Source: Phycisphaerales bacterium (lineage in GTDB: Bacteria > Planctomycetota > Phycisphaerae > UBA1845 > PWPN01). From it: DNA of 64,000 nt. Below are positions 9,872 to 26,821 of this stretch, in pieces. The stretch lies in contig JAAYCU010000282.1 of NCBI GenBank assembly GCA_012729595.1, positions 3,591 through 67,590 on the forward strand. Reading direction: 5' to 3'. Position 1 is the stretch's first letter; each line of letters begins with the position of its first letter. A model generated the notes under the pieces. The model was not told where the DNA came from, did not search any database, and was given only the letters and a program-made list of their open reading frames with translations. Both the position numbers and the translations under genes were made by a program.

Positions 9872-10735
9872 ATGTTCCTTATCCTTGACGCCCAGTGGCT
9901 CGCTCCCGGCATCCGCCGGCTCATCGTGCAAGCCCCACACGTTCTCCGGCACCATCAGCCCGGGCATTTTGTTATTGTACGTGTCGCGCCCGAAAGCGAG
10001 CGCATCCCGCTGACCGTGGCCGACACCGATCACGACAAGCAGACTATCACATTGATTGTCCAGGTGGTCGGGGCGACCACCGAACAGCTCTGCAATCTCG
10101 AAACCGGACAGAGTGTCCTCGATGTGGCCGGCCCGCTGGGCAAACCGACGGAGATCAAGAAATTCGGGCATGTCGTCCTGGTCGGCGGTGGAGTGGGGAC
10201 GGCGGTTATTCTCCCGCAGGCCAAGGCCCTGAAAAATCTTGGCAACCGCGTCTCGGCCGTTATCGGCGGACGCAGCAAGGATTATGTCATCCTGGAACAA
10301 GATCTGAGCCAACACTGCGACGCCGTCTATCCCTGCACCGATGACGGGAGCTACGGATATCACGGATTTGTCACAGGACAATTGAACGAGCTGATCGCGG
10401 ACAAAGCCCAACCGGTCGATGCGGTCATCGCCGCCGGGCCGGTGCCGATGATGAAGGCCGTCGCCGAAGTCACCCGTCCGCACGGTATTCATACTATCGT
10501 CTCGCTCAACCCCATCATGGTCGACGGCACGGGAATGTGCGGCGGTTGCCGGGTGATGGTCGGAGACAAAATGCTGTTCGCCTGTGTCGACGGCCCGGAA
10601 TTCGACGCCCACCAGGTGGATTTCGATGAGCTGCGCGACCGCCTGACCGCCTACCGCACCCAGGAAAAGAGAGCATGGGACCACAAGCCAAGCGGGCACG
10701 TATGTAAATGCAAAGTCGCGGAGGTGCCGTCATGA
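9872..10735 (+). CDS. nfnA: Sulfide/dihydroorotate dehydrogenase-like FAD/NAD-binding subunit (NfnA/SudB type)
   Basis: PGHFVIVR...RIPLTVAD FAD-binding motif, VLVGGGVGTA NAD(P) fold, C-terminal CGGCRV...FACVDGPEF 2Fe-2S motif. Its stop overlaps the next gene's start (ATGA). Confidence 0.75.
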   Translation: MFLILDAQWLAPGIRRLIVQAPHVLRHHQPGHFVIVRVAPESERIPLTVADTDHDKQTITLIVQVVGATTEQLCNLETGQSVLDVAGPLGKPTEIKKFGHVVLVGGGVGTAVILPQAKALKNLGNRVSAVIGGRSKDYVILEQDLSQHCDAVYPCTDDGSYGYHGFVTGQLNELIADKAQPVDAVIAAGPVPMMKAVAEVTRPHGIHTIVSLNPIMVDGTGMCGGCRVMVGDKMLFACVDGPEFDAHQVDFDELRDRLTAYRTQEKRAWDHKPSGHVCKCKVAEVPS

Positions 10736-12141
10736 CCCTCAAGGCCTCCGAACGGATGAAAATCCCGCGGCAACATATGCCCGAGCAGGATCCCGGCCAA
10801 CGGGCAACGAATTTCGGCGAGGTTAATTTCGGCCTGGCCTGCGAGGCCGCTCGCACCGAGGCCGACCGTTGCCTTGGCTGTAAGGGCGCTAAATGTATAG
10901 GCGGCTGTCCCGTCGGCGTGGACATTCCCGGTTTTCTCGGGGCTCTGTCCGAAGGCAATCTAGACAAGGCCGCCGATATCCTCTTCGATGCCAACGTTTT
11001 GCCTGGCATTACCGGCCGCGTCTGCCCCCAGGAAACCCAATGCGAGGCTCTCTGCATCCGTACGGGCAAAAGTGAGCCGGTGGCCGTCGGCTATCTCGAA
11101 CGTTTCGTAGCCGATTGGGCCCGCGAACACCGTACTACCAAGGTTCAACATCCTCCCGCGACCGGGAAACGCGTGGCCGTAGTCGGCTCGGGGCCGGCCG
11201 GCCTGACCTGTGCAGGCGAACTGGCGAAAAAAGGGCACCAGGTAACCATCTACGAAGCCCTGCACAAACCCGGCGGGGTATTAGTCTACGGCATCCCGGA
11301 GTTTCGTCTGCCTAAAAAGATTGTCGATAGCGAGGTTGAGAAGCTCAAACAACTCGGCGTTCGCATCGAATGCAATATAATAATCGGCCAGACCTATACA
11401 ATCAGCGACCTGCTGAACGAACAGGGCTTCGATGCGGTCTTCATCGCCAACGGAGCCGGTCTACCGGTATTCTTGGGAATCCCCGGAGAAAATCTAAAAG
11501 GGGTTTATTCTGCCAATGAATACCTTACCCGGGTCAACCTCATGGGCGCTTATCGCTTTCCGGAAAGTCCCACGCCTGTAATCGACGCTCCGCAAGTCGT
11601 GGTAGTCGGCGGAGGCAATACGGCGATGGACGCCGTCCGCACCGCCCGCCGACTGGGGGCCTCGCCGGCCACGCTTATTTACCGGCGTAGCCGCCAGGAA
11701 ATGCCCGCCCGTGTCGAGGAAGTCAAACACGCCGAGGAGGAGGGCGTGACCTATCATTTCCTGGTCAACCCCGTCGAGATCCTCGGCACCGATGATGGTT
11801 GGGTTCGGGCCGTCCGCTGCCAAAATAGGGAACTGGGTGAACCGGACGATTCCGGACGCCGACGCCCCATAGCTGTCCCCGGCAGCGAATTCGAAGTCCC
11901 CTGCCAGGTATTTATCGAAGCCATCGGAACACGGGCCAACCCCCTGCTCACTCAGACCACCCCCGAGCTCAAGGTCAATAAATGGGGGTACATCGAGGTC
12001 GACGACAAGAACATGACCAGCGTCCCCGGCGTATTCGCCGGCGGCGATATCGTCCGCGGGGCAGCCACCGTCATCCTGGCTATGGGCGACGGAAAGAAAA
12101 CCGCAGCGGCCATGCATGACTATCTGCTCAACCAAGATTAA
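10732..12141 (+). CDS. nfnB: NADPH-dependent glutamate synthase beta-chain-like oxidoreductase (NfnB/SudA/GltD type)
   Basis: CLGCKGAKCIGGCPV and GRVCPQETQCE Fe-S motifs, two Rossmann motifs (VAVVGSGPAGL, VVVVGGGNTAMD), C-terminal GVFAGGD. ATG at 10732 is coupled to nfnA. Confidence 0.8.
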   Translation: MTLKASERMKIPRQHMPEQDPGQRATNFGEVNFGLACEAARTEADRCLGCKGAKCIGGCPVGVDIPGFLGALSEGNLDKAADILFDANVLPGITGRVCPQETQCEALCIRTGKSEPVAVGYLERFVADWAREHRTTKVQHPPATGKRVAVVGSGPAGLTCAGELAKKGHQVTIYEALHKPGGVLVYGIPEFRLPKKIVDSEVEKLKQLGVRIECNIIIGQTYTISDLLNEQGFDAVFIANGAGLPVFLGIPGENLKGVYSANEYLTRVNLMGAYRFPESPTPVIDAPQVVVVGGGNTAMDAVRTARRLGASPATLIYRRSRQEMPARVEEVKHAEEEGVTYHFLVNPVEILGTDDGWVRAVRCQNRELGEPDDSGRRRPIAVPGSEFEVPCQVFIEAIGTRANPLLTQTTPELKVNKWGYIEVDDKNMTSVPGVFAGGDIVRGAATVILAMGDGKKTAAAMHDYLLNQD

Positions 12142-13290: not shown

Positions 13291-13365
13291 GCGGATATAT
13301 ACGCAGGCCCGGCGGCGACGCTGGGCGAAAACCGTCGAGTATCCGGCCGGCGGGCGTAGAGACTT

Positions 13366-13439
<74 letters not shown>

Positions 13440-13515
13440 TTGTTTTACATACCCCCTGTTCGCTCGACCTGTCAATTGCCATCAGAATCACGATTTTAAC
13501 TCTTATCGTCCCCCC

Positions 13516-14958
13516 CTACTCTTCGGCGTCCTCGGCGGCGAGGTTGTATTTGCGCATCAGGGCGTGGAAGTTCGTGCGTTGCATGCCGACCTGCTCGGCG
13601 GCCTTGCTGACGTTGCCGCCGCAACGGCGGAGGGCCTCGACCAGAAAGCGGCGTTCGAGTTCATGCACGGCCGAGTCGCGGACCTGCTGCTTGAGTTTCT
13701 TGAATTCCTCCCAGTCGGCGGGCAGTTGGCTGACATCCGAGCGCAGCGGGGCCTGGCGGATTTCCGGGGGCAGGTGTCGGGCCTCGATCCGGTCGGCATC
13801 GCAAAGAATGGCCATCCGCTCCACGATATTACGCAGTTCGCGAACGTTGCCCGGCCAGGGGTAGCTTTCCATCCGGGCCATGGCCTCTGGGGTGAATCCC
13901 TTGAGGGGCATGTCGTTCTTCTCGCGAAAGCGCTCCAGAAACGCCACAGCCAGCAGCGGGATATCCCCGGGCCGCTCGCGCAACGGCGGCAGGTGGATGG
14001 GCACGACGTTAAGGCGATAGTAGAGATCCTCGCGAAATGCGCCCTCGCGAACCAGGGCGGCCAAGTCGCGATTGGTCGCGGCGATCAGGCGGATATCCAC
14101 CTCGCGCTCGGCGGCCTCGCCCACCCGCTTGACCTGGCGAGTTTCCAGCACGCGCAGGAGTTTGCCCTGGGTCTCCAGGCTGATGTTGCCCACTTCGTCC
14201 AGAAAAAGCGTGCCCTTGTCGGCGGCCTCGAACAACCCCTGCTTGTTGCTGATCGCCCCGGAGAACGACCCGCGAACGTGTCCGAACAATTCACTTTCAA
14301 GCAGGGTCGGAGCCAAAGCGGTGCAATCGCAAGCCAGCAGCGAATGGTCGCGGCGGCGGCTTAAACGATGCAAGGCACGGACGACCATCTCCTTGCCCGT
14401 GCCGCTCTCGCCGGTGACCAGGACAGTGCCCTCGGTCGGGGCGACCCGCTTGATCAGGGTGAAGACCTGTTCCATGGTCCGCGATTCGCCGATGATCCCC
14501 TCAAAGCCGCGAGCGACATCGAGCTCACGGCGGAGGGCGGCGTTCTCGCGAAGCAAGACCGAGCGTTCCCAGACCTTGCCGACCACGACATGCAACTGGT
14601 TGGGCGAAAAGGGCTTGCTCAAGAAGTCGGCGGCACCCTGCTTCATGGCCTCGACGGCAGATTCGACCGTCGAATGGCCGGTGATAATAATCACTTCCGC
14701 AGAGACGCCAGCGGCTTTGACCCGCCGCAATATCTCGAAACCGTCGATCATGGGCATCATCAGATCAACAAGAATAATATCGAACTCACCGGACATGGCC
14801 GCCTGCAAGCCCTCGTTTGGATCCTCGCAATAAAGCACGTCATGGCCCTCCGGTGCGAGCGAACGTTTGCAGCTCAGCCCGACGACCGGTTCATCGTCGA
14901 TGACCAGAATCCGCAACGGGGCTCTTTGGGTGGCCATACCGGGAAGCGTATGACTCAT
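13516..14958 (-). CDS. Sigma-54-dependent Fis-family response regulator (NtrC-type enhancer-binding protein)
   Basis: Receiver (ILVIDDE...[10 protein letters not shown]), AAA+ core (GESGTGKE, a GAFTGA-loop variant [23 protein letters not shown]), C-terminal Fis HTH ([25 protein letters not shown]). Confidence 0.9.
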
Positions 14959-16904
14959 GACTCGGCCTTATCTTTCTCCGGCCGTTCGGCCTGGCCGGGC
15001 TGGTTGTCCGCGGCGGGCAGGATGATGGTAAATACCGCTCCGTTACCCTCGGCACTCTCCACCTCGAGCGAGCCGCCGTGCTGCTCGATGATCCCGTAAC
15101 TGACACTGAGGCCCAAGCCGGTGCTCTTGCCCACCGGCTTGGTACTGAAGAACGGCTCGAAGATCTGATCTAGATGTTCCCGGCGGATTCCATGTCCGGT
15201 ATCGGCTACCTGGATCACCACCAGCCGGTCACGCTGGGTTGTGCGAAGGGTCAATGTCCCACCGTTCGGCATGGCCTCGCAGGCATTGAGAAACAGGTTG
15301 AGCAACACCTGCTGAAACTGATTCATGTCGCCTCGGACCACCGGCAGGCCTTCGCATAATTCCTCGCTAATCAAAATCTCCTGGAACTGTTTTTGGCCGC
15401 CGATCAAACGGATAGTCCGTCGAATCGCATCGTTTACATCAAGCGGCTCCTTCTTGACCGGTTTCTCGCGTGCAAAATCCAGTAACCCACTGACAATCTC
15501 CGCCACCCGGCTGGTTTCGTTAATTATCAGCTCAAGATCCTCACGGTCCTGAGCGTCCATATTGGCCTTACCGTGCAGCAAATGGGCGAAGGTAAGGACG
15601 CCGGTCAGCGGGTTGTTAATTTCGTGGGCGATACCGGCGGCGAGGCGTCCGATGGAGGCCAGCTTTTCGCTACGGCCGATCTGCTGGCGGGCGGCCTGGG
15701 TGAGTCTTTCCTCGCGCTGGGCCACCGCGTCCGCCATAGAATCGATCGCCTGGCACAACTGCCCCATTTCGCCCGGTGGGTGCATACCGACCCTGACTGA
15801 AAAATCGCCCCCGCTCATTTTGCGGGACATGGCAATGATCCGATCGATAGGACGTAAAACCAGTTTGGTCACCAGAAAAATCAAGCTCAAACTCACCAGA
15901 GTAGCTAATCCCATGAAGGCCAGGAATGAACCGGCGATGATGTTCCGTTTGTGAAGAAAAGGCTCCTGAAGCAGGCCAACATATAATGCGCCGATGGTCC
16001 GGCCGCGTGGATCGCGAATCGGCTCGTAGGCGGAAATATACCAATCGTTAACAACGAAAGCCGGCGCCGCCCAGAGCTCTCCCCGTTCGAGAACGGCGTC
16101 CCGAACGGGCTCGCTCATCCGCGTGCCGACCGCCCGTTGTCCGCTTGGCAGGGTAACGTTGGTGGATATACGCGTATCGTCGAGGAAAATGGTTATGGTA
16201 CCTTTCTCCTGCCCCTGATGGGATTGGGGCGGAAAAACCATGGACTGGATAGCATCCACCACGTCGTAGCGTCCGTTGAGCAAATCACCGCCGTAGAGGA
16301 TTCCCAACAAGTGCCCCTGATGATCCGTTATAGGAACGGCGGCCGCGGCGACCAGCCCGTAGGTGGAAACACTGTCCGGGACAAGTTCCGCCGGCGTTGA
16401 CGCTATCAACTCGATCCTGGCCCGGGCCGCGAGTTCTCCGTCCTCTACGGCCAATTGCTCGTCAGTAAGAACAATGGTTCCGGTCGCGGCTTGTTGTGTC
16501 TCCATAACTTGGGCAATCAGTGGATTGTCAACCAGCATATCACCGGTCCGCTCGGGGGCCCGGGCCCGGCAGATCACCACCCCGGAGGCATCCAGAACAA
16601 CTACAAAGTCCATTTCCCAGGAGCTATATACCCTCCGTAATATCCGGCCCAGCTCATCGCAATCTTTTTTTTCCAGGGCTTCCGCCAGGGATTGATCCAA
16701 GGCGACCGCAAGGAGAAAATGGGCACTTCGCTCGATATGGTGATCGTAGATGACCCGGGCGCTATTTAGGTCGAGTCGAACATTGTTCTGGACCTCGTGT
16801 AGCCAAACCCGGCTGACATAGTGCACGGTAGCCAATGAAAGTATCGAGTTTGCCACCAGGATCACGGCGATAAACATCATGGTCAGCTTCACACGGATAG
16901 TCAT
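14955..16904 (-). CDS. Membrane sensor histidine kinase (large periplasmic sensor domain, HAMP, HisKA, HATPase)
   Basis: Start taken at MTIRVKL (ATG 16904; the track ORF extends upstream). Two TM segments flank a ~330-aa loop. HAMP, H-box AAGIAHEINNPL, N/G boxes NLFLNACEAM, DTGHGI, GLGLSV. Overlaps the regulator gene by 4 nt. Confidence 0.85.
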   Translation of the reverse strand: MTIRVKLTMMFIAVILVANSILSLATVHYVSRVWLHEVQNNVRLDLNSARVIYDHHIERSAHFLLAVALDQSLAEALEKKDCDELGRILRRVYSSWEMDFVVVLDASGVVICRARAPERTGDMLVDNPLIAQVMETQQAATGTIVLTDEQLAVEDGELAARARIELIASTPAELVPDSVSTYGLVAAAAVPITDHQGHLLGILYGGDLLNGRYDVVDAIQSMVFPPQSHQGQEKGTITIFLDDTRISTNVTLPSGQRAVGTRMSEPVRDAVLERGELWAAPAFVVNDWYISAYEPIRDPRGRTIGALYVGLLQEPFLHKRNIIAGSFLAFMGLATLVSLSLIFLVTKLVLRPIDRIIAMSRKMSGGDFSVRVGMHPPGEMGQLCQAIDSMADAVAQREERLTQAARQQIGRSEKLASIGRLAAGIAHEINNPLTGVLTFAHLLHGKANMDAQDREDLELIINETSRVAEIVSGLLDFAREKPVKKEPLDVNDAIRRTIRLIGGQKQFQEILISEELCEGLPVVRGDMNQFQQVLLNLFLNACEAMPNGGTLTLRTTQRDRLVVIQVADTGHGIRREHLDQIFEPFFSTKPVGKSTGLGLSVSYGIIEQHGGSLEVESAEGNGAVFTIILPAADNQPGQAERPEKDKAES

Positions 16905-17034
16905 GGTTATTCTCGATCCTGGCCGGTGGTTAGCAAAAATACTCGTACAGTGTATGAGCATACCATACACCCGAAAGGATGGTAGTAAACTCTGGGCAGC
17001 TTGACAAATAACCGCAGCGTAGCGACAAGGGGAC

Positions 17035-17052
17035 TGCAGCACCCTGGCTGCA
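17035..17052. promoter_or_regulatory. Inverted repeat TGCAGC-N6-GCTGCA, candidate enhancer (UAS) for the sigma-54 activator
   Basis: Perfect 6-bp arms about 100 bp upstream of the -24 element, followed by an AT-rich spacer. The function is inferred only from position. Confidence 0.25.
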
Positions 17053-17153
17053 ATTTATCCGCACGCAGTGATATCTTTGACAGCTAATAGGTTATTTTCC
17101 CCCGTGTTTTTACCTCAATAAGATACAGCAGAAATAATGATAACTTATAAGGT

Positions 17154-17169
17154 TGGCACAGCGGTTGCT
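17154..17169 (+). promoter_or_regulatory. Sigma-54 (-24/-12) promoter upstream of hydC
   Basis: TGGCACagcggTTGCTt matches the TGGCAC-N5-TTGCW consensus exactly (GG-N10-GC spacing). It lies about 118 nt upstream of the hydC start and next to a sigma-54 EBP gene. Confidence 0.75.
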
Positions 17170-17286
17170 TGTGAAAAATAGTACGATGTTTTGGGCCAGC
17201 CGAGTACAATGCGGACAGCCCAGTGTTTACATTCATAAGGCGTTGCAAGGATCAATTTTTTTGAGATTAAATCAGGAAGGTGCACA

Positions 17287-17778
17287 GTGATTGCCTTGGA
17301 TACCGAGGAAATTTTGACAAGGCACCCCAATGCCGGACGGGACAGCCTGATCCCTATTTTGCAGGAGGTCCAGGAAAGCCAGGGCTATCTGTCCCGGCAG
17401 GCGATGATCGAGATAGGCCGACATCTGAACTTGCCGGTCAGCAAAATTTACGGGGTGGCTACCTTTTACAACCAGTTCCGTTTCCAGCCGCAAGGCCGCT
17501 TTCACATCCAGGTCTGCCGGGGAACGGCCTGCCACGTTAAGGGGTCGGCCGCGGTGCTGGATGCGCTCAAACGCGAGTTGAAGATCGATGCGGGCCAGAC
17601 TACGCGGGACGGGGTGTTCAGCATGGAAGTCGTAGCCTGCATCGGGGCGTGCGGACTGGCCCCGGTCATTTGTATCAACGGAGAGTTTTTTGCCGGCGTA
17701 AGTACGCAGGCGGTACCAAAAATCATCGATTCTTATCGAAGAAAGGCGGCTAACAATGACCACGACGAAGCTGCCTGA
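17287..17778 (+). CDS. hydC: [FeFe]-hydrogenase subunit HydC (NuoE-like 2Fe-2S thioredoxin-fold protein)
   Basis: GTG start after an AGGAAGG RBS. NuoE motifs VCRGTACHVKGS and VACIGACGLAPV. Confidence 0.85.
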   Translation: MIALDTEEILTRHPNAGRDSLIPILQEVQESQGYLSRQAMIEIGRHLNLPVSKIYGVATFYNQFRFQPQGRFHIQVCRGTACHVKGSAAVLDALKRELKIDAGQTTRDGVFSMEVVACIGACGLAPVICINGEFFAGVSTQAVPKIIDSYRRKAANNDHDEAA

Positions 17779-19120
17779 ACAGGAAAAGTGCAAGGTTAAG
17801 GCCAAGTTGCCCGAGGTGCTTGAGTTGGTGTTGGCGGAAAACGCCGGACCAATTACGGACAATGTAGCCATGGCGTGGACGGAACGCCTGGCGGAACTAC
17901 GCCGAGAGAAGCTGGTTCGTCCGGCCGTATTTATCGGCACTGGCACCTGCGGGCTGGGGGCCGGAGCAGCCAAAACCCTGGCGGCGGTCAAGGGCTGGCT
18001 CGCGGAGCGGAACCTCGAGGCCGACATAGTGGAAGTCGGATGTATCGGTATATGTTCGGCAGAGCCGCTCTTGGACGTGCAGTTGCCCGGGCGGACACGG
18101 GTTTGCTTCGCCAAGGTAACGGAAGACAAGGTTGCCGCCCTGCTAGGCTCGGTTTTCGAAAACAATATCCCGGACGAGACGGTTTTGGGACAGCATCGCG
18201 GCGAATCCCTTGAACCTTGGTCAGATGTTCCCTGGCTGCACGAGCATCCGTTCTTCGCCCCGCAGACGCGATGGGTTCTGGCTAACTGCGGTCTGATCGA
18301 TCCGGCCAGCATGGACGAATATATCGCTCGAGGCGGCTACCGGGCCATGGTCAAGATGCTCCGGGAAATGACTCCCGAGCAGACCTGTGACATGGTGGAG
18401 GCCAGCGGGCTTCGTGGCCGTGGCGGCGGCGGGTTCCCCACGGGCAAAAAATGGAAATTCGCCAGGCAAACGCCGAGCAAGCAGAAATATGTAATCTGCA
18501 ACGCGGATGAAGGCGACCCCGGCGCATTCATGGATCGGGCGGTCATCGAGGGCGATCCCCACCGGCTGGTGGAGGGTCTGGCCATCGCGGCGTACGGAAT
18601 CGGGGCATCCAAGGCCTACATCTATATTCGCGCGGAATATCCGCTGGCCATCCAACGACTGAAAGTAGCGATCGAACAGGCCAGGAATGCCGGGTTACTG
18701 GGCCATCGGATTCTGGGCAGCGATTTTGACCTGGATATCATAATCAAGATGGGGGCGGGCGCGTTCGTGTGCGGCGAGGAGACGGCCCTGATGCACAGCA
18801 TCGAGGGCAAGCGGGGCATGCCCCGGCCGCGGCCGCCTTTCCCGGCGGTGCAAGGATTGTTCGGCAAGCCGACGATTATCAACAACGTCGAGACCCTGGC
18901 TAACCTGCCGACCTTAGTGGATCACGGGGCCGAATGGTTCAGTGCGGTGGGTACACCAACCAGCAAGGGAACGAAAGTGTTCGCCCTGTCAGGCAAGGTC
19001 GCCCGGACCGGCTTGGTCGAGGTGGCCATGGGCACCAGCATTCGCAGCATCGTGTTCGATGCCGGCGGCGGGATCCCCAACGGCAAGGTCTATAAAGCAG
19101 TACAGATCGGCGGGCCGTAG
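17756..19120 (+). CDS. hydB: [FeFe]-hydrogenase subunit HydB (NuoF-like), N-terminal part ending at an in-frame TAG
   Basis: N-terminal 2Fe-2S thioredoxin-like domain (CGLGAG...GCIGICSAEP). NuoF FMN/NADH motifs GLRGRGGGGFPTGKKW, CNADEGDPGAF, GAGAFVCGEETAL. Ends ...VQIGGP*. Confidence 0.85.
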   Translation: MTTTKLPEQEKCKVKAKLPEVLELVLAENAGPITDNVAMAWTERLAELRREKLVRPAVFIGTGTCGLGAGAAKTLAAVKGWLAERNLEADIVEVGCIGICSAEPLLDVQLPGRTRVCFAKVTEDKVAALLGSVFENNIPDETVLGQHRGESLEPWSDVPWLHEHPFFAPQTRWVLANCGLIDPASMDEYIARGGYRAMVKMLREMTPEQTCDMVEASGLRGRGGGGFPTGKKWKFARQTPSKQKYVICNADEGDPGAFMDRAVIEGDPHRLVEGLAIAAYGIGASKAYIYIRAEYPLAIQRLKVAIEQARNAGLLGHRILGSDFDLDIIIKMGAGAFVCGEETALMHSIEGKRGMPRPRPPFPAVQGLFGKPTIINNVETLANLPTLVDHGAEWFSAVGTPTSKGTKVFALSGKVARTGLVEVAMGTSIRSIVFDAGGGIPNGKVYKAVQIGGP

Positions 19121-19741
19121 GGCGGATGCATTCCCGAACATCATCTGGACATCCAGATCGATTATGAATCACTCAAGACCGTGGGCGCGATGATGGGCTC
19201 CGGCGGACTGGTGGTCATGGACGAAGACACCTGCATGGTGGACCTGGCCAAGTTTTTCATGGATTTCATCCAGCGGGAAAGCTGCGGCAAGTGTATTCCC
19301 TGCCGGGAGGGCACGCGACGTATGCTGGAGATTCTGGAACGGATCACCCAAGCCCGGCGGAGCGAAACGGGCACGGGCGCACTCGAACGGTTCAAGGGCG
19401 TGATGTACCTGACCCGGCTGGCTGAAGTAATCAAGGACACGAGCTTGTGTGGCCTGGGACAGACGGCGCCGAACCCCGTTCTAAGTACATTGCGGTGGTT
19501 CCGTAACGAATACGAGGAGCACATTTTCCATCGGCGGTGCCCGGCTGGAGCCTGTCGAGAGCTGCTGCACTTCCGGATCGATCCGGACCTGTGCAAAGGC
19601 TGCACGCTCTGCGCGAAGAAATGTCCGACACAGGCGATCATGGGCGCTCCCAAGAGCCCGCATTACATCATTACCGATAAGTGCATTGGTTGCGGAACGT
19701 GCCTGGAGGTGTGCCGCCCGAAAGCGGTTATAGTGGATTAA
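19121..19741 (+). CDS. hydB: HydB (NuoF-like), C-terminal part in the same frame as 17756..19120 (first Met at 19181)
   Basis: The same reading frame continues [10 protein letters not shown]...[14 protein letters not shown]. NuoF 4Fe-4S motif [12 protein letters not shown]...LCGLGQ, then 2x[4Fe-4S] [12 protein letters not shown] / [13 protein letters not shown]. Confidence 0.8.
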
Positions 19742-19796
19742 GACGGCGCGCTAGCCCGGCCTTCCGGGCGCGGCCGAGAATATCAAGAGGTTGATC

Positions 19797-21518
19797 GTGG
19801 TTACCATTGAAGTAAATAACCGAACTGTCGAGGCCAAACCGGGCGAAATGCTGCTCAGCACGTTGCGACGGGCAGGAATCAAGGTGCCTACCATGTGCAA
19901 TATCGATGGGCTGCCGCCGAGCGGGGCCTGTCGGATGTGCGTGGTGGAGGTGGAGGGCCGGCCGGGGCTGCAACCGAGTTGCGCGTTGCCGGTGACCGAA
20001 GGCATGAAGGTACAGACCCATTCACCGCGGGCGGTACGGGCTCGGAAAACCATCGTGGAATTGCTGCTGGCCAACCATCCGGACGACTGCCTTTACTGCG
20101 TGCGGAATAACCAGTGCGAGCTGCAAAACCTGGCCGGCGAACTGGGCGTGCGTGAGCGGCGTTACACAGGCCAGCGCGAAGAATATCACCTGGACCTATC
20201 CAGCCCGTCCATCGTGCGCGATCCGGCCAAGTGCATTCTGTGTGGCAAGTGCGTGCGAGTCTGCGCAGAAATCCAGAACGTCGCCTCGATCGATTTTGTC
20301 GGACGGGGCAGCCATTCGCGGGTCGGGACCGCCTTCGAGCAGGGTTTGAACGTATCGAGCTGCATCAATTGCGGCCAGTGCGTGATGATCTGCCCGACGG
20401 GCGCGTTACGCGAGAAAAGCGCATTGAAGGAAGTGTTCGAGGCCATCCTTGACCCGGAACGTGTTGTGGTGGTGCAACACGCTCCGGCGGTCTCCGTGAG
20501 TCTGGCCGAGGAGTTCGGCCTGCGTCCGGGAACGGACATCAACGGCGTGATGGTGGCCGCTCTCCGCCGGCTGGGCTTCGACCGGGTATTCGACACGTCG
20601 TTTTCCGCGGACCTGACCATCATGGAGGAAGCTTCCGAGCTGGTGGATCGTATCAAGAACGGCGGCAAGTTACCGATGATGACCAGTTGCTCGCCGGGCT
20701 GGATCAAGTTCGTCGAACAGTTTTATCCGGACATGATAGAGAACCTGTCCACCTGCAAGAGCCCGCAACAAATGCTCGGTGCGCTGATCAAGTCGCTCTT
20801 CGCGGAACGGGAAGGGATCGATCCGTCCCGGATTTTCAGCGTGTCGATCATGCCCTGCACGGCCAAGAAGTTCGAGGCCGGCCGACCGGAGATGGGCCGG
20901 CATGGAATCGCAGACGTGGACGCTGTTTTGACCACCCGCGAACTGGCCCGCATGATCCGCCTGGAGGGCATCGATCTTCAATCGCTCACGCCGTCGGAAG
21001 CGGACAACCCGTTCGGGCAGCGGAGCACGGCCGGCAAGCTATTCGGCGCAACGGGCGGAGTCATGGAAGCGGCGGTCCGAACCGCGCATTACCTATTGAC
21101 CGGACGCGAACTGGCCGAATTAAAGGTTCAGCCTATTCGCGGCATGAAAGGCGTGAAGAAAGCGAAACTGAAAATCGACGGCCTGGAGATCGGCATCGCG
21201 GTGGCCAGCGGGCTGGGCAACGCCGCTGAACTACTGGAAGAGGTACGGGCCGGCCGACAGGATCTGCATTTTATCGAGATAATGACCTGCTCAGGCGGCT
21301 GCGTGGCCGGAGGTGGCCAACCGATAGGGGCCGACGCCGCAGCGGTGCGGGCGCGAATGCAAGCCCTGTATAACATTGACCGCAGTGGAACCTTGCGTAC
21401 ATCCCACTCCAACCCGGACATCAAACGGGTCTACGAAGAGTATCTGGGAGAACCGCTGGGCGAGAAGAGCCACCATCTGTTGCATACGCATTACGCAAAA
21501 AGGGAAGTAGTGGGTTAG
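19797..21518 (+). CDS. hydA: [FeFe]-hydrogenase catalytic subunit HydA (HndD type, group A trimeric/bifurcating architecture)
   Basis: N-terminal 2Fe-2S and His-ligated/4Fe-4S domains. H-cluster motifs L1 MTSCSPGW (variant), L2 MPCTAKKFE, L3 EIMTCSGGCVAGGGQP. GTG at 19797 follows an AAGAGG RBS (track TTG at 19791). Confidence 0.9.
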   Translation: MVTIEVNNRTVEAKPGEMLLSTLRRAGIKVPTMCNIDGLPPSGACRMCVVEVEGRPGLQPSCALPVTEGMKVQTHSPRAVRARKTIVELLLANHPDDCLYCVRNNQCELQNLAGELGVRERRYTGQREEYHLDLSSPSIVRDPAKCILCGKCVRVCAEIQNVASIDFVGRGSHSRVGTAFEQGLNVSSCINCGQCVMICPTGALREKSALKEVFEAILDPERVVVVQHAPAVSVSLAEEFGLRPGTDINGVMVAALRRLGFDRVFDTSFSADLTIMEEASELVDRIKNGGKLPMMTSCSPGWIKFVEQFYPDMIENLSTCKSPQQMLGALIKSLFAEREGIDPSRIFSVSIMPCTAKKFEAGRPEMGRHGIADVDAVLTTRELARMIRLEGIDLQSLTPSEADNPFGQRSTAGKLFGATGGVMEAAVRTAHYLLTGRELAELKVQPIRGMKGVKKAKLKIDGLEIGIAVASGLGNAAELLEEVRAGRQDLHFIEIMTCSGGCVAGGGQPIGADAAAVRARMQALYNIDRSGTLRTSHSNPDIKRVYEEYLGEPLGEKSHHLLHTHYAKREVVG

Positions 21519-21655: not shown

Positions 21656-23659
21656 ATGCGACATCCCGCGGATATTCCGTTGGTCACGACGATCAAGGAG
21701 CGCTGCCGGGTATGCTATACCTGCGTGCGGGAGTGCCCGGCCAAGGCCATCCGTATTTCCGATGGTCAGGCGGAAGTACTGACGGAACGTTGCATAGGAT
21801 GCGGAAACTGCGTGCGAGTCTGCAGCCAGCACGCCAAGCAAATCTTAAACGGCATTGAGGAAGTCAAAGCTTTGCTGGCGAGCGAGCATAAGGTAGCCGC
21901 CTGCGTAGCACCGAGTTTTCCTGCCGAGTTTGAGGAAATCCCCTACACCAAACTGGTCGGCATGATCCGAGCCCTGGGTTTCGATTATGTCACCGAGGTC
22001 GGTTTCGGTGCGGATTTGGTGGCCGACCGATACCGCAAGCTGCTCGATGAAAATGGAAATAAGCGATATTTGGCCACCAGTTGTCCGGCTATCGTGGGTT
22101 ACGTAGAGCGCTATCATCCCGAACTGGTCAATTCATTGGCCCCGATCGTCTCGCCCATGGTGGCCACGGCCCGGGTCTTACGCCGTATGCACGGCAAAGG
22201 GCTGAAGGTTGTGTTTATCGGCCCGTGTATCGCCAAGAAAGGCGAGGCGGTAACCCGAAAAATTGCGGGCGACGTTGACGGAGCACTAACCTTTTCGGAA
22301 TTGCGCCATTTTTTCGCGGCGCAGAATATTACACCGGAGTCCGCCAGTAGCGATGAATTTGATCCACCACGTGCCGGGGCCGGATCCTTGTTTCCGATCA
22401 GCCGCGGCATGTTACAGGCCGCCCAGATCAGCGAGGATCTTGCAGCGGGGATCGTCGTGGCAGCCGACGGGCGCAGCGATTTCGCGGAGGCCATTCGCGA
22501 ATTCGAGACGGGCGATCTGGATGCTCGGCTACTGGAAGTTTTGTGTTGCAACGGCTGCATCATGGGTGCAGGCATGACCTGCCGCACTCCCCAATTCCAT
22601 CGTCGCAGCCGGATCAGCCAATTCGTCCGCCGACGCATGGGGGCGATGGATCATCGCGAATGGGAAGGACAGATGACCCGTTTCGCGGATCTGGACCTGA
22701 GCCGATCATACGAGGCAAACGACCGGCGGGTCGCCGCACCGTCGGATGACGCGGTTCGGCTGATACTCGCGGAAATGGGCAAGCTCAAACCCGAGGATGA
22801 GCTGAATTGCGGGGCCTGTGGCTACGAAAACTGCCGGGAACATGCCATCGCTATTTATAAGGGCCTGGCCGAAAGCGAGATGTGCCTGCCTTACACGATC
22901 GAGCAGCTTCGCCAGACAGTACAGGAGCTGGCCAGCACCCAAGAGGCGTTGAATAATTCCGAGAAACTAGCGAGCATGGGACAGATGGCCGCGGGCATCG
23001 CCCACGAGGTGAACAATCCGCTGGGTGTCGTGCTTATGTTCGCCCACATTCTGCTGGACGAGCTCCCCCCGGACAATCCGTACCGCAAGGATTTGCAGAC
23101 GATCGTGGAAAACGCCGACCGGTGCAAGAAGATCGTATCCGGCCTGCTGCATTTCGCCCGGCAGAATAAGGTCAGCCTGGAAATGACGGATGTGCGCGAC
23201 TTGGTGGACAAAGCCCTCAAGGTCGTATCCCTTCCAGCCAAAGTCACGTTACAGGTTGAACATGAGCCGGGAGACATGAACGCGGACGTTGACCGAGACC
23301 AGTTGGTGCAGATTTTAAACAATCTTATCAGTAACGCGCAGGCGGCTATGCCCAATGGTGGAACCCTGACCGTACGGACCAGCGAGGACGGCGAGCGAGT
23401 GTGTATCGCGGTATCCGATACCGGAGTGGGCATTCCGGAAGAGAATCGGAAGAAGATCTTTGATCCGTTTTTCACCACCAAGGAGGTGGGCAAGGGAACC
23501 GGGCTGGGACTGGCGGTAACGTACGGAATCGTGAAAATGCATCATGGGAATATTGAGGTGGAATCGAATGCGGATGCCGCCAAAGGCCCGACGGGAACGA
23601 CATTCAGGGTACTCCTACCGCGTCGCGGCCGTCAGGAGGCGCCCGCATCGGCGGGTTAA
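21656..23659 (+). CDS. Hydrogenase-like (H-domain) sensory protein fused to a histidine kinase (HydS-type domain + HisKA + HATPase)
   Basis: 2x[4Fe-4S] ferredoxin motifs ([23 protein letters not shown]). Degenerate H-cluster motifs [31 protein letters not shown] 4-Cys module CGACGYENC...C. H-box [12 protein letters not shown], and [24 protein letters not shown]. Confidence 0.85.
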
Positions 23660-23679
23660 TATATATAAAGGACACGACA

Positions 23680-24066
23680 ATGGCCAAAACAGTACTGGCA
23701 GTGGATGATGATGCTGATTATCTGGCCCAACTGGAGATCCAGTTGTTGGCCGCGGGATTCGAGGTCTGGACCGCCGAGAGCGTTGGACAAGCGAAGGAGA
23801 TTCTAGACCAACGCCGCCCGGACCTGGCGGTCGTAGACCTAATGATGGAGCACATGGACGACGGTTTCACCTTGTGCCACGACATCAAGGCTCGCGACGC
23901 AAGCATTCCGGTTATTCTGGTGACCGGAGTGGCGGGCGAAACCGGCCTGGATTTCGACGCCTCGACCAAGGAAGAGCGTTCGTGGATCAAGGCAGACGCC
24001 TTACTGGACAAGCCGGTGCGTTTTGAGCAGCTTAGGCGGGAAATCGGCAAGCTGCTTAAGGAATAG
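23680..24066 (+). CDS. Single-domain response regulator (receiver only)
   Basis: 128 aa. VLAVDDD, DLAVVDLMMEH, ILVTG and LDKP receiver signatures, with no output domain. AAGGA RBS. Confidence 0.85.
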   Translation: MAKTVLAVDDDADYLAQLEIQLLAAGFEVWTAESVGQAKEILDQRRPDLAVVDLMMEHMDDGFTLCHDIKARDASIPVILVTGVAGETGLDFDASTKEERSWIKADALLDKPVRFEQLRREIGKLLKE

Positions 24067-25238
24067 TGGTCATGGATACATTACGGGTGTTGGTCACCGA
24101 CGATGAGGCAGAGATGCGCCGGGCGGTGGATCGGGCTCTGGCCCGCTTCACCGTGGCGTTACCCGACGTTGAAGGGGAAGTATGCTTCGCTGTCGAGCAA
24201 GCCGAGAGTGGCGAACAGGCCCTCGAAAAAATCGCGGTCCAACCTCCGGATATCCTGATGCTGGACTACAAAATGGGCGGCATGACCGGCTTGGATGTCC
24301 TTGATCAACTATCCAAACAGGAACACGAAATGCTGACCGTGATGGTGACCGCCTACGCCTCACTGGAAACAGCGGTGGTGGCGACCAAACGCGGCGCATT
24401 TGATTTCATCGCCAAGCCTTTCACTCCGGCCGAACTTAAGGACACGGTCCGCAAGGCGGCCGCGCACCTGTTGATGCAGCGGCAGGCCCGCAAGCTGGCC
24501 CAGGAAAAGCGACAGGTCCGGTTCCAGTTCATCAGCGTGCTGGCCCACGAGTTGAAAGCGCCGCTGGGGGCGATCGAAGGCTTTCTGCAAGCTTTGACGA
24601 ATCCGCAGGTGCGGGCCAACGACGAGGCCTGCGCCCAGATGATCGGGCGCTGTCTGATACGGACCGAGGGGATGCGTAAGATGATCCACGACCTGCTCGA
24701 CCTGACCCGTATCGAGTCCGGGGCCAAGAAACGCGAGCTGGCGGAATTGGACGTGGTCGAGATGGTCCACCGATCCATCGAAACCCTGACCCCGCTGGCG
24801 ACGGAACGCAACGTACGGATCGAAGTGCGTACGGACGGGCCGATACCCATGATGGCCGACCAGGGAGAAATCGAAATCATCGCGAACAATCTGCTGAGCA
24901 ATGCGGTGAAATACAACAAGGAGGGCGGCCGGGTCGAGGTCAAGCTATCCGCCGACGGCGAGGAAGCGGTATTGGCCGTGACGGATACGGGGATCGGCAT
25001 GACCGCCGAGGAAACCGCCCGGCTGTTCCGGGATTTCGTACGGATCAAGAATGACCAAACCAGGCGGATCATGGGCAGCGGACTGGGTCTTTCGATCGTT
25101 AAAAAGCTGGCCCTGCTCTACGGCGGTGACGCGACGGTGTGGAGCGAACCGGGCGAGGGCAGCACCTTTACGGTTCGTTTGAAACGCAACCTGGGCGGCG
25201 AGCCGGCGGCGGCCGCCGAACGCGCGGTCGAGGCCTGA
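24066..25238 (+). CDS. Receiver-histidine kinase hybrid (REC + HisKA + HATPase, cytoplasmic)
   Basis: N-terminal receiver (VLVTDDE, DILMLDYKMGGMTG, FIAKPF), H-box SVLAHELKAPL, N/G boxes NLLSNAVKYN, DTGIGM, GSGLGLSI. No TM or sensor domain. The start is coupled to the preceding stop. Confidence 0.85.
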   Translation: MVMDTLRVLVTDDEAEMRRAVDRALARFTVALPDVEGEVCFAVEQAESGEQALEKIAVQPPDILMLDYKMGGMTGLDVLDQLSKQEHEMLTVMVTAYASLETAVVATKRGAFDFIAKPFTPAELKDTVRKAAAHLLMQRQARKLAQEKRQVRFQFISVLAHELKAPLGAIEGFLQALTNPQVRANDEACAQMIGRCLIRTEGMRKMIHDLLDLTRIESGAKKRELAELDVVEMVHRSIETLTPLATERNVRIEVRTDGPIPMMADQGEIEIIANNLLSNAVKYNKEGGRVEVKLSADGEEAVLAVTDTGIGMTAEETARLFRDFVRIKNDQTRRIMGSGLGLSIVKKLALLYGGDATVWSEPGEGSTFTVRLKRNLGGEPAAAAERAVEA

Positions 25239-25399
25239 ACCTTGGACGCCGCGATGCGGGGAAGCGGATGAGGCCCCACGGGCTGACCGGATTACCCACC
25301 GGCAAGAGGCGGGAGAATGACTTCCTGGGGTATTTTACCGCGTGGTTTTTTGTAGACCAGCCGCCTATGAATATAAGTAGGATCTTGTGAGGAGTTGCC

Positions 25400-26821
25400 A
25401 TGCGTGCCATGGCCCAGATGACCTTAAGCGAACACGCCACCGACTTTATCGACGACGACCGGTTGAACGGTCTGCTTCGATCGCGGCCGGACGAGGCCCG
25501 CGTGCGCGCCATCATTGAAAAAAGTCTGGCCAAGCAAGCCTTGAACGTCGAGGAAACCGCGGTCCTGCTCAACGCCGAGGAACCGGACCTTGTCGAGGAG
25601 ATTTTCGAGGCCGCCCGGCGGCTCAAGCGCAACGTGTACGGCAACCGCATCGTTCTTTTCGCCCCGCTATATATCGGCAACGAATGCGTGAACGACTGCC
25701 TGTACTGCGCCTTCAAACGCTCAAACCCGGACGCGGTTCGGCGGACGCTGGCGGAGCAGGAGTTGCGGCGGCAGGTGGAGGCCCTGGAAAACCAGGGGCA
25801 TAAGCGACTGATTCTGGTATTCGGAGAGCACCCGCGTTACGACGCCACGTTTATTGCCGATTGCGTGCGCACGGTTTACGACGTGCATGCAGGGCATGGG
25901 CAGATTCGACGAGTGAATATAAACGCCGCCCCGCTCGATCACGTCGGGTACAAGACCGTCAAAGAGGCCGGAATCGGCACGTACCAGGTGTTTCAGGAGA
26001 CGTATCACCACGCCACCTATGCCCGGGTCCATCCGTCCAACACACGCAAGGGCAATTACGGTTACCGCTTGGATGCCTTGAGCCGGGCCATGGAGGCGGG
26101 CATCGACGACGTGGGGATCGGGGCGTTGTTCGGCCTGTACGACTGGCGCTTCGAGGTGCTGGGCCTGGTAGCGCACGCGACGTATCTCCAGAAACGACAT
26201 GGGGTCGGGCCGCACACGATCAGTTTTCCACGCTTGCAGCCGGCCGCGGGCGTGCAACTCGATCAACGGTTTTTCGTAAACGATCACGACTTCAAGCGGC
26301 TGATCGCCGTCCTGCGGCTGGCCGTCCCTTACACCGGGCTTATCCTGACCGCCCGGGAAAAGCCCGCCTTGCGCCGCGCGGTGATGGAATTCGGGGTCTC
26401 CCAGATCGACGCCGGCAGCCGCATCGAGATCGGCGGATACACCGAGGCCGGCGACGCGCAGTGCATGGAACGCGAACAGTTTCAACTGGGCGATATCCGC
26501 TCGCTCGATGAGGTCATGCGCGAATTGCTGGTGGACGGCTATATCCCCAGCTTCTGTACGGCCTGCTATCGGCTGGGCCGGACCGGGGAACATTTCATGG
26601 AATTCGCGATCCCCGGCTTCATCAAGCGCTATTGCACGCCAAACGCCCTGAGCACGCTCATGGAATACCTGACCGACTACGCCTCTCCGCAAACCAAGGC
26701 GGCAGGCCGAAGACTGATCGAGGCTGAACTCGATAAAATGGATAACGGCACGCAAAAAGAACGCCTGCGGGACGTATTGCGGAAAATCGAATCAACCGAC
26801 CAACGCGATCTCTATTTCTGA
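25400..26821 (+). CDS. hydG: [FeFe]-hydrogenase H-cluster radical SAM maturase HydG
   Basis: GAGGAG RBS. Radical SAM CVNDCLYCAF. C-terminal Fe-S motif GYIPSFCTACYRLGRTGEHFMEF and CTPNAL. ~470 aa, typical of HydG (ThiH-like). Confidence 0.88.
   Translation: MRAMAQMTLSEHATDFIDDDRLNGLLRSRPDEARVRAIIEKSLAKQALNVEETAVLLNAEEPDLVEEIFEAARRLKRNVYGNRIVLFAPLYIGNECVNDCLYCAFKRSNPDAVRRTLAEQELRRQVEALENQGHKRLILVFGEHPRYDATFIADCVRTVYDVHAGHGQIRRVNINAAPLDHVGYKTVKEAGIGTYQVFQETYHHATYARVHPSNTRKGNYGYRLDALSRAMEAGIDDVGIGALFGLYDWRFEVLGLVAHATYLQKRHGVGPHTISFPRLQPAAGVQLDQRFFVNDHDFKRLIAVLRLAVPYTGLILTAREKPALRRAVMEFGVSQIDAGSRIEIGGYTEAGDAQCMEREQFQLGDIRSLDEVMRELLVDGYIPSFCTACYRLGRTGEHFMEFAIPGFIKRYCTPNALSTLMEYLTDYASPQTKAAGRRLIEAELDKMDNGTQKERLRDVLRKIESTDQRDLYF

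Follow-up and report, generated by a model that had tools for sequence, protein, structure and literature searches.

The subject of this work is a 64-kb stretch of DNA (hereafter the window) from a Phycisphaerales bacterium, contig JAAYCU010000282.1 of assembly GCA_012729595.1, in which an [FeFe]-hydrogenase operon beginning with hydC is encoded divergently from a membrane sensor histidine kinase and an NtrC-family activator of sigma-54-dependent transcription. In our opinion, it is quite probable that this kinase and activator switch on the hydrogenase operon by way of an upstream activating sequence (UAS) and a sigma-54 promoter. According to this proposal, the kinase (14955-16904, minus strand) would detect a signal outside the cytoplasm through its two-module Cache domain, formate being a candidate ligand, and would phosphorylate the activator (13516-14958, minus strand). 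The activator would assemble on the palindrome TGTATG-N7-CATACA at 16951-16969 and, from a distance of about 190 bp, would use ATP to open the sigma-54 promoter at 17154-17169, which would drive hydC-hydB-hydA-hydS(kinase)-REC-REC/kinase and possibly hydG. The proposal rests on gene content, on the promoter and site sequences, on conservation and on co-occurrence, and from these we infer binding, phosphotransfer, the identity of the signal and the transcript start. A sigma-54 two-component switch had already been suggested for this DNA from its letters alone (the original prediction), and in outline that suggestion stands. Its enhancer and its bending element do not, and it missed both an H2-sensor branch encoded within the operon and a stop codon inside hydB.

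The sigma-54 promoter and the candidate enhancer

The promoter TGGCACagcggTTGCT (17154-17169, plus strand) is composed of a -24 element TGGCAC (17154-17159), the spacer agcgg (17160-17164) and a -12 element TTGCT (17165-17169). It faces hydC, which starts at 17287, exactly as predicted with respect to coordinates, strand and match to the consensus. It is the sole exact match to TGGCAC-N5-TTGCW on either strand of the window, where 0.06 would be expected, and at least one such match occurred in 5 of 100 shuffled versions of the window. When one mismatch is allowed, 1 site is found where 2.1 are expected, and the match is no longer rarer than chance. By itself the sequence match is suggestive, not decisive. 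The relaxed pattern TGGC-N7-TTGC occurs 8 times in the window (3.0 expected), a number reached in just 1 of 100 shuffles; one of these relaxed sites, at 26967-26981 on the minus strand, is antisense to the end of hydG.

The promoter can also be judged by comparison. In a close relative (L161 to L163 in our numbering of loci) the genes diverge in the same way from an intergenic region of equal length, and the proteins in L161/L162 are 84% (kinase), 93.5% (regulator) and 95% (HydC) identical to those of the window. Both the -24 hexamer and the -12 pentamer are 100% identical in L161, the identity of the five-nucleotide spacer between them being 20% and that of the remaining intergenic DNA 30-42%. 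Two more distant Planctomycetota genomes, L011 and L023, were used for comparison of the region upstream of hydC. L011 has an exact consensus before this gene (TGGCACgcttgTTGCA), and L023 has TGGTATgcgatTTGCA, that is, TGGTAT-N5-TTGCA with two mismatches. Because the elements are conserved around a variable spacer in L161 and the promoter recurs in L011 and L023, we regard the hydC sigma-54 promoter as established by comparative criteria; thus the claim that it is real can be upheld. With its predicted start near 17180, the hydC transcript would have a leader some 107 nt long. In the literature (PMC12316311), sigma-54 regulons are described for Planctomycetota, Phycisphaerae among them.

A remark on the gene table of the close relative is appropriate here. 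For L161 4537-5928 the source table gives small minus-strand open reading frames, which are a gene-calling artefact: tblastn finds an intact plus-strand regulator there, 93.5% identical to that of the window.

Directly after the -12 element lies a 17-nt block, TGTGAAAAATAGTACGA (17170-17186, plus strand), which is 100% identical in L161, the leader that follows it being 42% identical. Tested as a Rex box, it does not fit. It may serve as the operator of a repressor, or it may belong to the start site. Within the block is GTACGA; its reverse complement, TCGTAC, agrees with the UAS on the left flank of the latter. A Rex operator over the promoter was rejected, since the TTGTGAA after the -12 element is a half-site only. 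A riboswitch or attenuator in the hydC leader was likewise rejected (folding z = 0.35, no Rfam match).

The candidate UAS, cGTACAgTGTATG-agcatac-CATACAccc, extends over 16944-16972 and has its core palindrome TGTATG-N7-CATACA at 16951-16969; this palindrome lies upstream of the kinase ATG, at a distance of 47 bp, and 194 bp separate its centre from the -24 element downstream, which is within the 70-250 bp taken as the criterion for the UAS of an NtrC-family activator. The intergenic alignment of the window with L023 is too diverged to be of use, and a shared 14-mer was spotted by eye and then searched for as a pattern. In L161 both half-sites are 100% identical to those of the window and the spacer is 43% identical. 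The motif stands 179 bp upstream of the hydC sigma-54 promoter in L011, in an exact copy, and 186 bp upstream of that in L023. In L011 the kinase-regulator pair is 8.6 kb away from the hydC promoter, and therefore the UAS goes with that promoter and not merely with the kinase gene.

The same motif is present 60-235 bp upstream of sigma-54 promoters in L001, L006, L012, L015, L016, L017 and L071. Counted over the 20 sequences whose regulator carries the loop GSFSGA (433 kb), there are 14 UAS/promoter pairs in which the promoter lies 60-235 bp downstream. Among 16 sites with at most one mismatch, 10 have a promoter 30-320 bp downstream, where roughly 0.3 would be expected (a rough estimate, calculated as 28 promoters x 290 bp / 433 kb per site). 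Four paralogous loci (L005, L008, L010 and L013) have the same half-sites spaced by N6. Further, the loci with this UAS are exactly those in which the recognition helix of the activator is conserved; distant relatives that do not have the motif have a different helix. In our opinion, the palindrome is a real enhancer candidate, that is, a putative binding site of the activator.

The kinase-regulator operon has a sigma-70-like promoter, TTGTCA-17-TACCAT, at 16979-17007 of the minus strand (9 of 12 matches in a consensus scan). Its -10 block is 88% and its -35 block 83% conserved in L161, against a background of 30-42%. Presumably it functions as the promoter of the kinase operon, whose transcript would have its 5' end inside the UAS or immediately upstream of it. 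Given that the UAS is situated just downstream of this promoter, feedback through it on the genes for the kinase and the activator is probable as well.

The original prediction had placed the enhancer in an inverted repeat, TGCAGC-N6-GCTGCA, and had assigned a bending role to an AT-rich stretch. The repeat is indeed physically present at 17035-17052, but it is probably not a regulatory site. We reject it as the UAS: its identity to L161 is 33%, which is background, and it is absent from L011 and L023. The AT-rich stretch also exists (17110-17153, 60-77% A+T compared with 42.5% for the window), in the window and its close relative only. It is not conserved in L011 and L023, and a conserved bend was rejected for that reason; an IHF site was rejected as well, no match to the IHF consensus being present.

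The kinase, the activator and their relatives

The kinase consists of a first transmembrane segment, a Cache-type outside domain, a second transmembrane segment, HAMP, HisKA and HATPase_c. The Pfam matches are sCache_3_3 (2.3e-30), Cache_3-Cache_2, dCache_3, HAMP, HisKA and HATPase_c. Its true start is the ATG at 16904; the GTG at 17042 was rejected in its favour. The product of 649 amino acids is 100% identical to an NCBI protein from a Phycisphaerales metagenome-assembled genome. The start is 250 bp from the hydC sigma-54 promoter, and the kinase stop overlaps the regulator start by 4 nt. Thus, both the genes predicted on the opposite strand and their distance of about 250 bp are borne out. 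The predicted topology needs a small correction: the HAMP domain is there, but hydropathy places the hydrophobic segments at about residues 9-29 and 325-347, and the outside loop that they enclose is about 295 residues long, not about 330.

An AlphaFold model of the outside domain contains two PDC/Cache modules (predicted local distance difference test 91, predicted TM-score 0.89). Its neighbours in fold are LuxQ, DctB (succinate), KinD (pyruvate) and a formate-binding sCache, at TM-scores of only about 0.5. At the level of sequence the PDB offers two matches only, 8py1 (phmmer, E = 2.8e-5) and 8py0, both of them sensors with bound formate. In the alignment with 8py1 it is the later module along the sequence that matches, and not the earlier one. 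In the formate-binding sCache pocket an Arg forms a salt bridge, a Thr and a Tyr form hydrogen bonds, and a Phe limits the size of the pocket (PMC11804620). This Arg aligns with R215 and this Tyr with Y263, both conserved in the kinase family; the Phe of the pocket floor is Tyr (Y278) in the kinase, and the alignment does not extend to the Thr. For the ligand we therefore regard a small carboxylate, perhaps formate, as a reasonable candidate and nothing beyond that; on balance it seems to us rather less likely than not.

The activator combines a receiver domain (REC), an AAA+ sigma-54 interaction domain and HTH_8. It is matched by Sigma54_activat (3.9e-67), Response_reg (5.4e-26), HTH_8 (4.5e-9) and AAA_lid, and PF00072, PF00158, PF25601 and PF02954 all score above their cut-offs. 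The Walker A motif is GESGTGKE, and the best solved relatives are NtrC1 and NtrC4 of Aquifex. The loop that contacts sigma-54 reads GSFSGA, as was noted originally; it is no oddity of this gene, however. The same loop is found in 16 orthologues beside sigma-54 promoters, and more distant kinase-linked relatives have GSFTGA, GAFSGA or GAFTGA, all beside sigma-54 promoters. In the list of Kazakov et al., the single variants GSFTGA and GAFSGA are loop forms that should still allow activation. To judge from these sequences, GSFSGA characterizes a whole clade and does not point to decay.

Of the named NCBIfam models, those for AtoS/AtoC and ZraS/ZraR give the pair its highest scores. Membership in either was rejected on the equivalog cut-offs: the regulator scores 407.6 bits for AtoC (cut-off 714) and 360.8 for ZraR (760), reaching no equivalog cut-off, and the kinase scores 245.3 for AtoS (646) and 212.6 for ZraS (479). 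There is no second activator gene within the window.

A separate set of 80 loci was gathered for the kinase-regulator family, 52 of them at least 15 kb long. Full-length relatives of the kinase occur in many phyla, and in most loci the regulator follows. Hydrogenase-type genes lie at most 10 kb from the kinase in 30 of the 80 loci, or in 22 of the 52 long ones. In Planctomycetota relatives a sigma-54 promoter just after the regulator precedes an operon for a REC-GcvH-like protein, a CCG-domain (HdrB/D-like) protein, HdrA-MvhD and EtfBA. The REC-GcvH-like protein encoded first (L011 13577-15148, L008 13638-15278, L023 13996-15615; 520-570 amino acids) consists of a receiver domain, a GcvH-like domain of the lipoyl-carrier type and a C-terminal half without assignment. 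No sigma-54 promoter of this kind is found downstream of the regulator in the window. Its position directly after the regulator stop is occupied by a tRNA-Arg (CCG) gene at 13365-13440, plus strand (ARAGORN; Rfam tRNA, 66.9 bits), which marks the end of the kinase-regulator operon and may mark a point of rearrangement.

A different arrangement is seen in loci of the Aminicenantes type, in which the kinase-regulator pair lies between two [NiFe] hydrogenase operons (for example L026, 2421-9850 and 13571-18016; also L029, L042, L047, L061 and others). The upstream operon encodes a [NiFe] hydrogenase linked to NuoE/F, HoxU and MvhD. The downstream one encodes a group-3b-like [NiFe] hydrogenase and is preceded, directly after the regulator, by a sigma-54-like promoter, a conserved (A/C)GGCAT-N5-TTGCA; then a consensus sigma-54 promoter leads into genes for REC, REC and a REC-kinase. 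Because of these neighbour genes across the loci, it seems that the two-component systems of this family specialize, via sigma-54, in hydrogenases of the cytoplasm and in electron-bifurcation modules.

The hydrogenase operon, its H2 sensor and the competing readings

All genes of the operon are on the plus strand. The hydC gene (17287-17778) encodes a NuoE-like [2Fe-2S] subunit (Pfam 2Fe-2S_thioredx, 3.5e-50); its start is a GTG behind an AGGAAGG ribosome-binding site, and it is exactly here that similarity to L161 sets in again, 17271-17300 being 93% identical. It is followed by hydB (17756-19741) for a NuoF-like flavoprotein subunit, and by hydA (19791-21518) for the catalytic [FeFe] subunit of the NADH-dependent multimeric type (Fe_hyd_lg_C, 4.4e-95; Fe_hyd_SSU). 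HydA matches the NCBIfam model NF040763, 'NADH-dependent [FeFe] hydrogenase, group A6', with 840 bits (cut-off 765). Thus, the HydA score and the NuoE- and NuoF-like subunits are as in HydABC, but the frames are not intact in all three genes. Within hydB, an in-frame TAG at 19118-19120 separates Complex1_51K and SLBB from NADH_4Fe-4S and Fer4. It falls inside the motif GGPSGGC, at a position where 51 of 53 relatives have Ser, mostly encoded by TCG, from which TAG differs by a single C-to-A change; L161 has GGPSGGC. The TAG is either a nonsense allele or a consensus or assembly error.

The maturase gene hydG (25400-26821), for the H-cluster radical-SAM enzyme (NCBIfam rSAM_HydG, 499.5 bits, cut-off 312), is preceded by a gap of 161 nt with a weak terminator-like hairpin at 25310-25327 and may form a separate transcript. 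A few kb from the hydrogenase cluster, at 9872-12141, are two adjacent NfnAB-like genes, for a DHODB-type Fe-S/FAD subunit and then for a GltD-like subunit with Fer4_20 and Pyr_redox_2. NfnAB is an electron-bifurcating transhydrogenase.

Between hydA and hydG lie three further signalling genes. The first (21656-23659) encodes a HydS-type sensory [FeFe] domain fused to a histidine kinase core, recognized by Pfam matches and motifs: Fer4, Fe_hyd_lg_C (1.1e-46), the FeS domain PF04060 (residues 383-412), HisKA and HATPase_c. It has two N-terminal [4Fe-4S] motifs, the H-cluster cysteines, the motif EVLCCNGC, ATSCP with Ser for the proton-relay Cys, GPC with Gly for Met353, and an exact Cx2Cx4Cx16C (CGACGYENC-x16-C). 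The hallmarks of group C/D [FeFe] hydrogenases are the absence of the proton-relay Cys299, the replacement of Met353 and Cx2Cx4Cx16C (PMC8163306), and class C1 of HydDB is described as 'histidine kinase-linked (putative)'. Judged by its motifs, the protein bears the hallmarks of a sensory (group C / HydDB C1) [FeFe] hydrogenase. Pfam finds no PAS domain in it, and about 30 residues separate PF04060 from HisKA, so it does not correspond to the M2f subclass. The other two genes encode a single-domain response regulator (23680-24066; REC only, Response_reg 2e-16), which follows hydS in most of 80 clusters described below, and a receiver fused to a PhoR-like kinase core, REC-HisKA-HATPase by Pfam (24066-25238), a conserved partner of hydS in homologous clusters.

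The phosphotransfer helix reads HEINNPLTGVLTFAH in the Cache kinases, and HydS kinases consistently differ, with a family consensus ...LMYAH. The HydS of the window has Phe where most have Tyr, and the HydS of L023 does not. Shared partner specificity of HydS and the Cache kinase was rejected, since the helix signatures differ consistently and the Phe/Tyr shift follows no trend. Because of this different signature, and of the constant company of the REC and REC-kinase genes, the HydS-kinase and the two receivers would probably form a second, cytoplasmic signalling branch whose members signal first to each other. That this branch converges, directly or indirectly, on the sigma-54 activator we find unlikely. 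The original statement that an extracytoplasmic signal gates transcription is thus at best half of the circuit; it did not take the cytoplasmic H2-sensor kinase, the REC and the REC-kinase of the operon into account.

How unusual the layout is can be seen from 80 metagenomic loci (L081-L160) gathered via the HydS-kinase fusion at 52-70% identity. They contain a conserved cluster, hydC-hydB-hydA-hydS(kinase)-REC-REC/kinase-hydG, in which the trio of hydS-kinase, REC and REC-kinase is almost always together; no DNA-binding output is encoded near the trio. In 25 of the 80 loci at least 150 bp of DNA upstream of hydC can be read, and none of the 25 has a sigma-54 promoter or the palindrome there; across the 968 kb scanned these motifs are only sporadic and never stand directly before hydC. 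What is found immediately upstream of hydC in about 21 of the 25 is rex (PF06971 + PF02629), the gene for the redox repressor Rex, which is present somewhere in 31 of the 80 loci. Examples of the rex-headed cluster are L097 5027-5683, L116 3282-3962 and L123 5106-5756, and TTGTGAA-N4-TTCACAA boxes are found upstream of rex or hydC in metagenomic clusters. In the window, tblastn detected no homologue of Rex, and no Rex box with up to 3 mismatches lies near hydC; rex is likewise absent from L011 and L023, and the gene calls of L161 show none from hydC to the kinase gene. The locus is best described as a regulatory replacement, in which a cluster usually headed by Rex appears to be wired to a sigma-54 enhancer system.

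The claim that the layout is unusual for HydABC operons is therefore justified. A full-text search of the library that could be searched returned no paper that joins sigma-54, [FeFe] hydrogenase and enhancer-binding proteins, and the hydrogenases mentioned in a 2025 cross-phylum survey of sigma-54 regulons are confined to [NiFe] genes and those of formate hydrogenlyase. As such, the control of hydrogenase genes by a sigma-54 two-component system is a known kind of regulation, so far described for [NiFe] enzymes.

Several observations weigh against our proposal that the divergent kinase and activator switch on hydC. The 64 kb of the window, to which the search was confined, contain no RpoN-box motif. 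The loop GSFSGA of the activator is a double variant, two conservative changes away from GAFTGA. The IHF consensus WATCAANNNNTTR with at most one mismatch is absent from all three hydC upstream regions, and the UAS-promoter distances in these (194, 179 and 186 bp) are similar but not in one helical phase. The operon may be impaired by the hydB stop. Further, the UAS is just 47 bp from the kinase start, copies close to the kinase gene exist without a divergent sigma-54 promoter in L011 (9955) and L018 (296), and weak sigma-70-like hexamers lie upstream of hydC (17109-17138 and 17153-17182, 9 of 12 matches). The primary role of the UAS could be autoregulation of the kinase operon. If it were only that, hydC would be served by an activator encoded elsewhere or mainly by a sigma-70 promoter; the kinase-proximal copies and the hexamers speak for this, as does the UAS itself, which would occupy about +3 to +21 relative to the start set by the conserved sigma-70-like promoter of the kinase. 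However, hydC of L011 has its own exact copy of the motif at a similar promoter distance and far from the kinase gene, activators of this class act in either orientation at 100-200 bp, the window offers no second activator gene, and the sigma-70-like hexamers are not conserved in L161. In our opinion this makes a purely autoregulatory palindrome distinctly improbable. Even more so, to a degree that we would hardly entertain it, is a coincidental sigma-54 match with regulation by Rex or by the hydS module alone. The absence of sigma-54 promoters before hydC from all 25 metagenomic clusters, about 21 of them with rex and many with Rex boxes, does speak for it, but neither a rex gene nor a Rex box is found in the window, L011, L023 and L161, and the -24/-12 elements are conserved around a variable spacer in L161 and recur in L011 and L023.

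The H2 sensor could also be the main input, with the HydS-kinase setting the phosphorylation of the activator, directly or via the REC and REC-kinase, and the Cache kinase being secondary or having another target. The hydS-kinase, REC and REC-kinase genes are almost invariant after hydCBA in the 80 clusters. They have no DNA-binding output, the sole one nearby in the window being the sigma-54 activator; the HydS and Cache kinase cores are 40-47% identical, and pairs of REC and REC-kinase genes are sigma-54 targets beside the Cache kinase-regulator pair in other phyla too. Against it, each kinase family has its own phosphotransfer-helix signature, an activator of this sort is missing from the surroundings of most HydS clusters, which have rex instead, and the Cache kinase is translationally coupled to the activator and co-conserved with it in most of 80 loci. 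We consider this explanation unlikely, although of those discussed here it deserves the most attention. A combined circuit with two inputs, in which the Cache kinase (sensing an external fermentation product, possibly formate) and the HydS-kinase (sensing intracellular H2) would converge on the activator, directly or via the REC and REC-kinase, seems to us somewhat less likely still. The same can be said of the idea that the locus is a relic, in which the hydB nonsense codon has inactivated the operon and the regulatory layout no longer matters. Indeed, the TAG replaces a near-invariant Ser of GGPSGGC, and TAG serves as an ordinary stop in 5 of the 19 genes of the window. However, one C-to-A change is all that separates the TAG from TCG, the commonest codon, and the genome is a metagenome-assembled one. 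Apart from this codon hydB is intact, as are all the genes around it, and L161 has Ser; an error of sequencing or of the consensus, or else a minority variant, is no less likely.

Comparison with known systems

Little is known about the regulation of electron-bifurcating-type [FeFe] hydrogenases beyond Rex, and, according to HydDB, no output has been defined for the putative H2-sensing hydrogenases of group C. The locus described here is a compact testable system (one promoter, one 19-bp site, one activator, two kinases, two receivers) and a case of regulatory replacement, Rex giving way to sigma-54 on an otherwise conserved cluster. It also points to a widespread unnamed kinase-activator family that is found together with hydrogenases and bifurcation modules across many phyla of uncultured anaerobes. 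The motif, if confirmed, could predict H2-metabolism regulons in metagenome-assembled genomes. Should the circuit with two inputs prove true, a sensory [FeFe] hydrogenase would for the first time be linked to a concrete output in transcription, and a cross-phylum sigma-54 two-component family dedicated to hydrogenases would be defined, covering [FeFe] A-type, [NiFe] group 3 and Hdr/Etf modules.

One parallel is with HoxJ/HoxA and the regulatory hydrogenase HoxBC of Cupriavidus necator, a system where H2 sensing controls sigma-54-dependent [NiFe] hydrogenase promoters. In both cases the hydrogenase that is controlled is encoded together with an H2 sensor of hydrogenase-like type, a histidine kinase and a regulator of the NtrC family, and transcription runs, or in the window is predicted to run, through sigma-54. 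In the window, unlike in HoxJ/HoxA-HoxBC, sensor and enzyme are [FeFe] proteins, the sensor is fused to the kinase core and lacks PAS, and there is an additional membrane Cache kinase translationally coupled to the activator; the likeness is one of layout and does not imply orthology of the proteins. HoxBC-type regulatory hydrogenases are described in PMC5665086 and as group 2b of HydDB.

With the rex-hydCBA-hydS clusters the window shares hydC, hydB, hydA, hydS-kinase, REC, REC-kinase and hydG at 52-84% protein identity; unlike them, it has no rex or its operator and has instead the divergent kinase-activator pair, the UAS and the sigma-54 promoter. The sensor resembles the group C sensors (Thermotoga maritima HydS and its relatives) in its N-terminal ferredoxin-like clusters, the H-cluster cysteines, the absence of Cys299, Gly in place of Met353 and Cx2Cx4Cx16C, and, like theirs, its gene stands beside that of a multimeric group A hydrogenase. 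It differs from them in that a short coiled segment, and no PAS, leads to HisKA-HATPase and in that a candidate transcriptional output adjoins.

The nearest characterised analogue that we found appears to be DVU2394 of Desulfovibrio vulgaris, a two-component sigma-54 activator with the loop GSFTGA that controls the adh-hdr-flox operon DVU2405-2397 and whose validated site is a direct repeat. Both proteins have a Ser-substituted GAFTGA loop, and relatives of the window activator drive operons of the bifurcation type (HdrA-MvhD, CCG-domain, EtfAB). The site in the window is, in contrast, a palindrome, and DVU2394 has no reported hydrogenase target; the two are compared by description only. Finally, FhlA of E. 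coli is a one-component GAF-domain sigma-54 activator of the [NiFe] Hyd-3 in the formate hydrogenlyase regulon. The logic proposed here would be the same, in that a sigma-54 activator turns on a hydrogenase operon upon a small carboxylate; unlike FhlA, the system of the window is a two-component one and its target is an [FeFe] hydrogenase.

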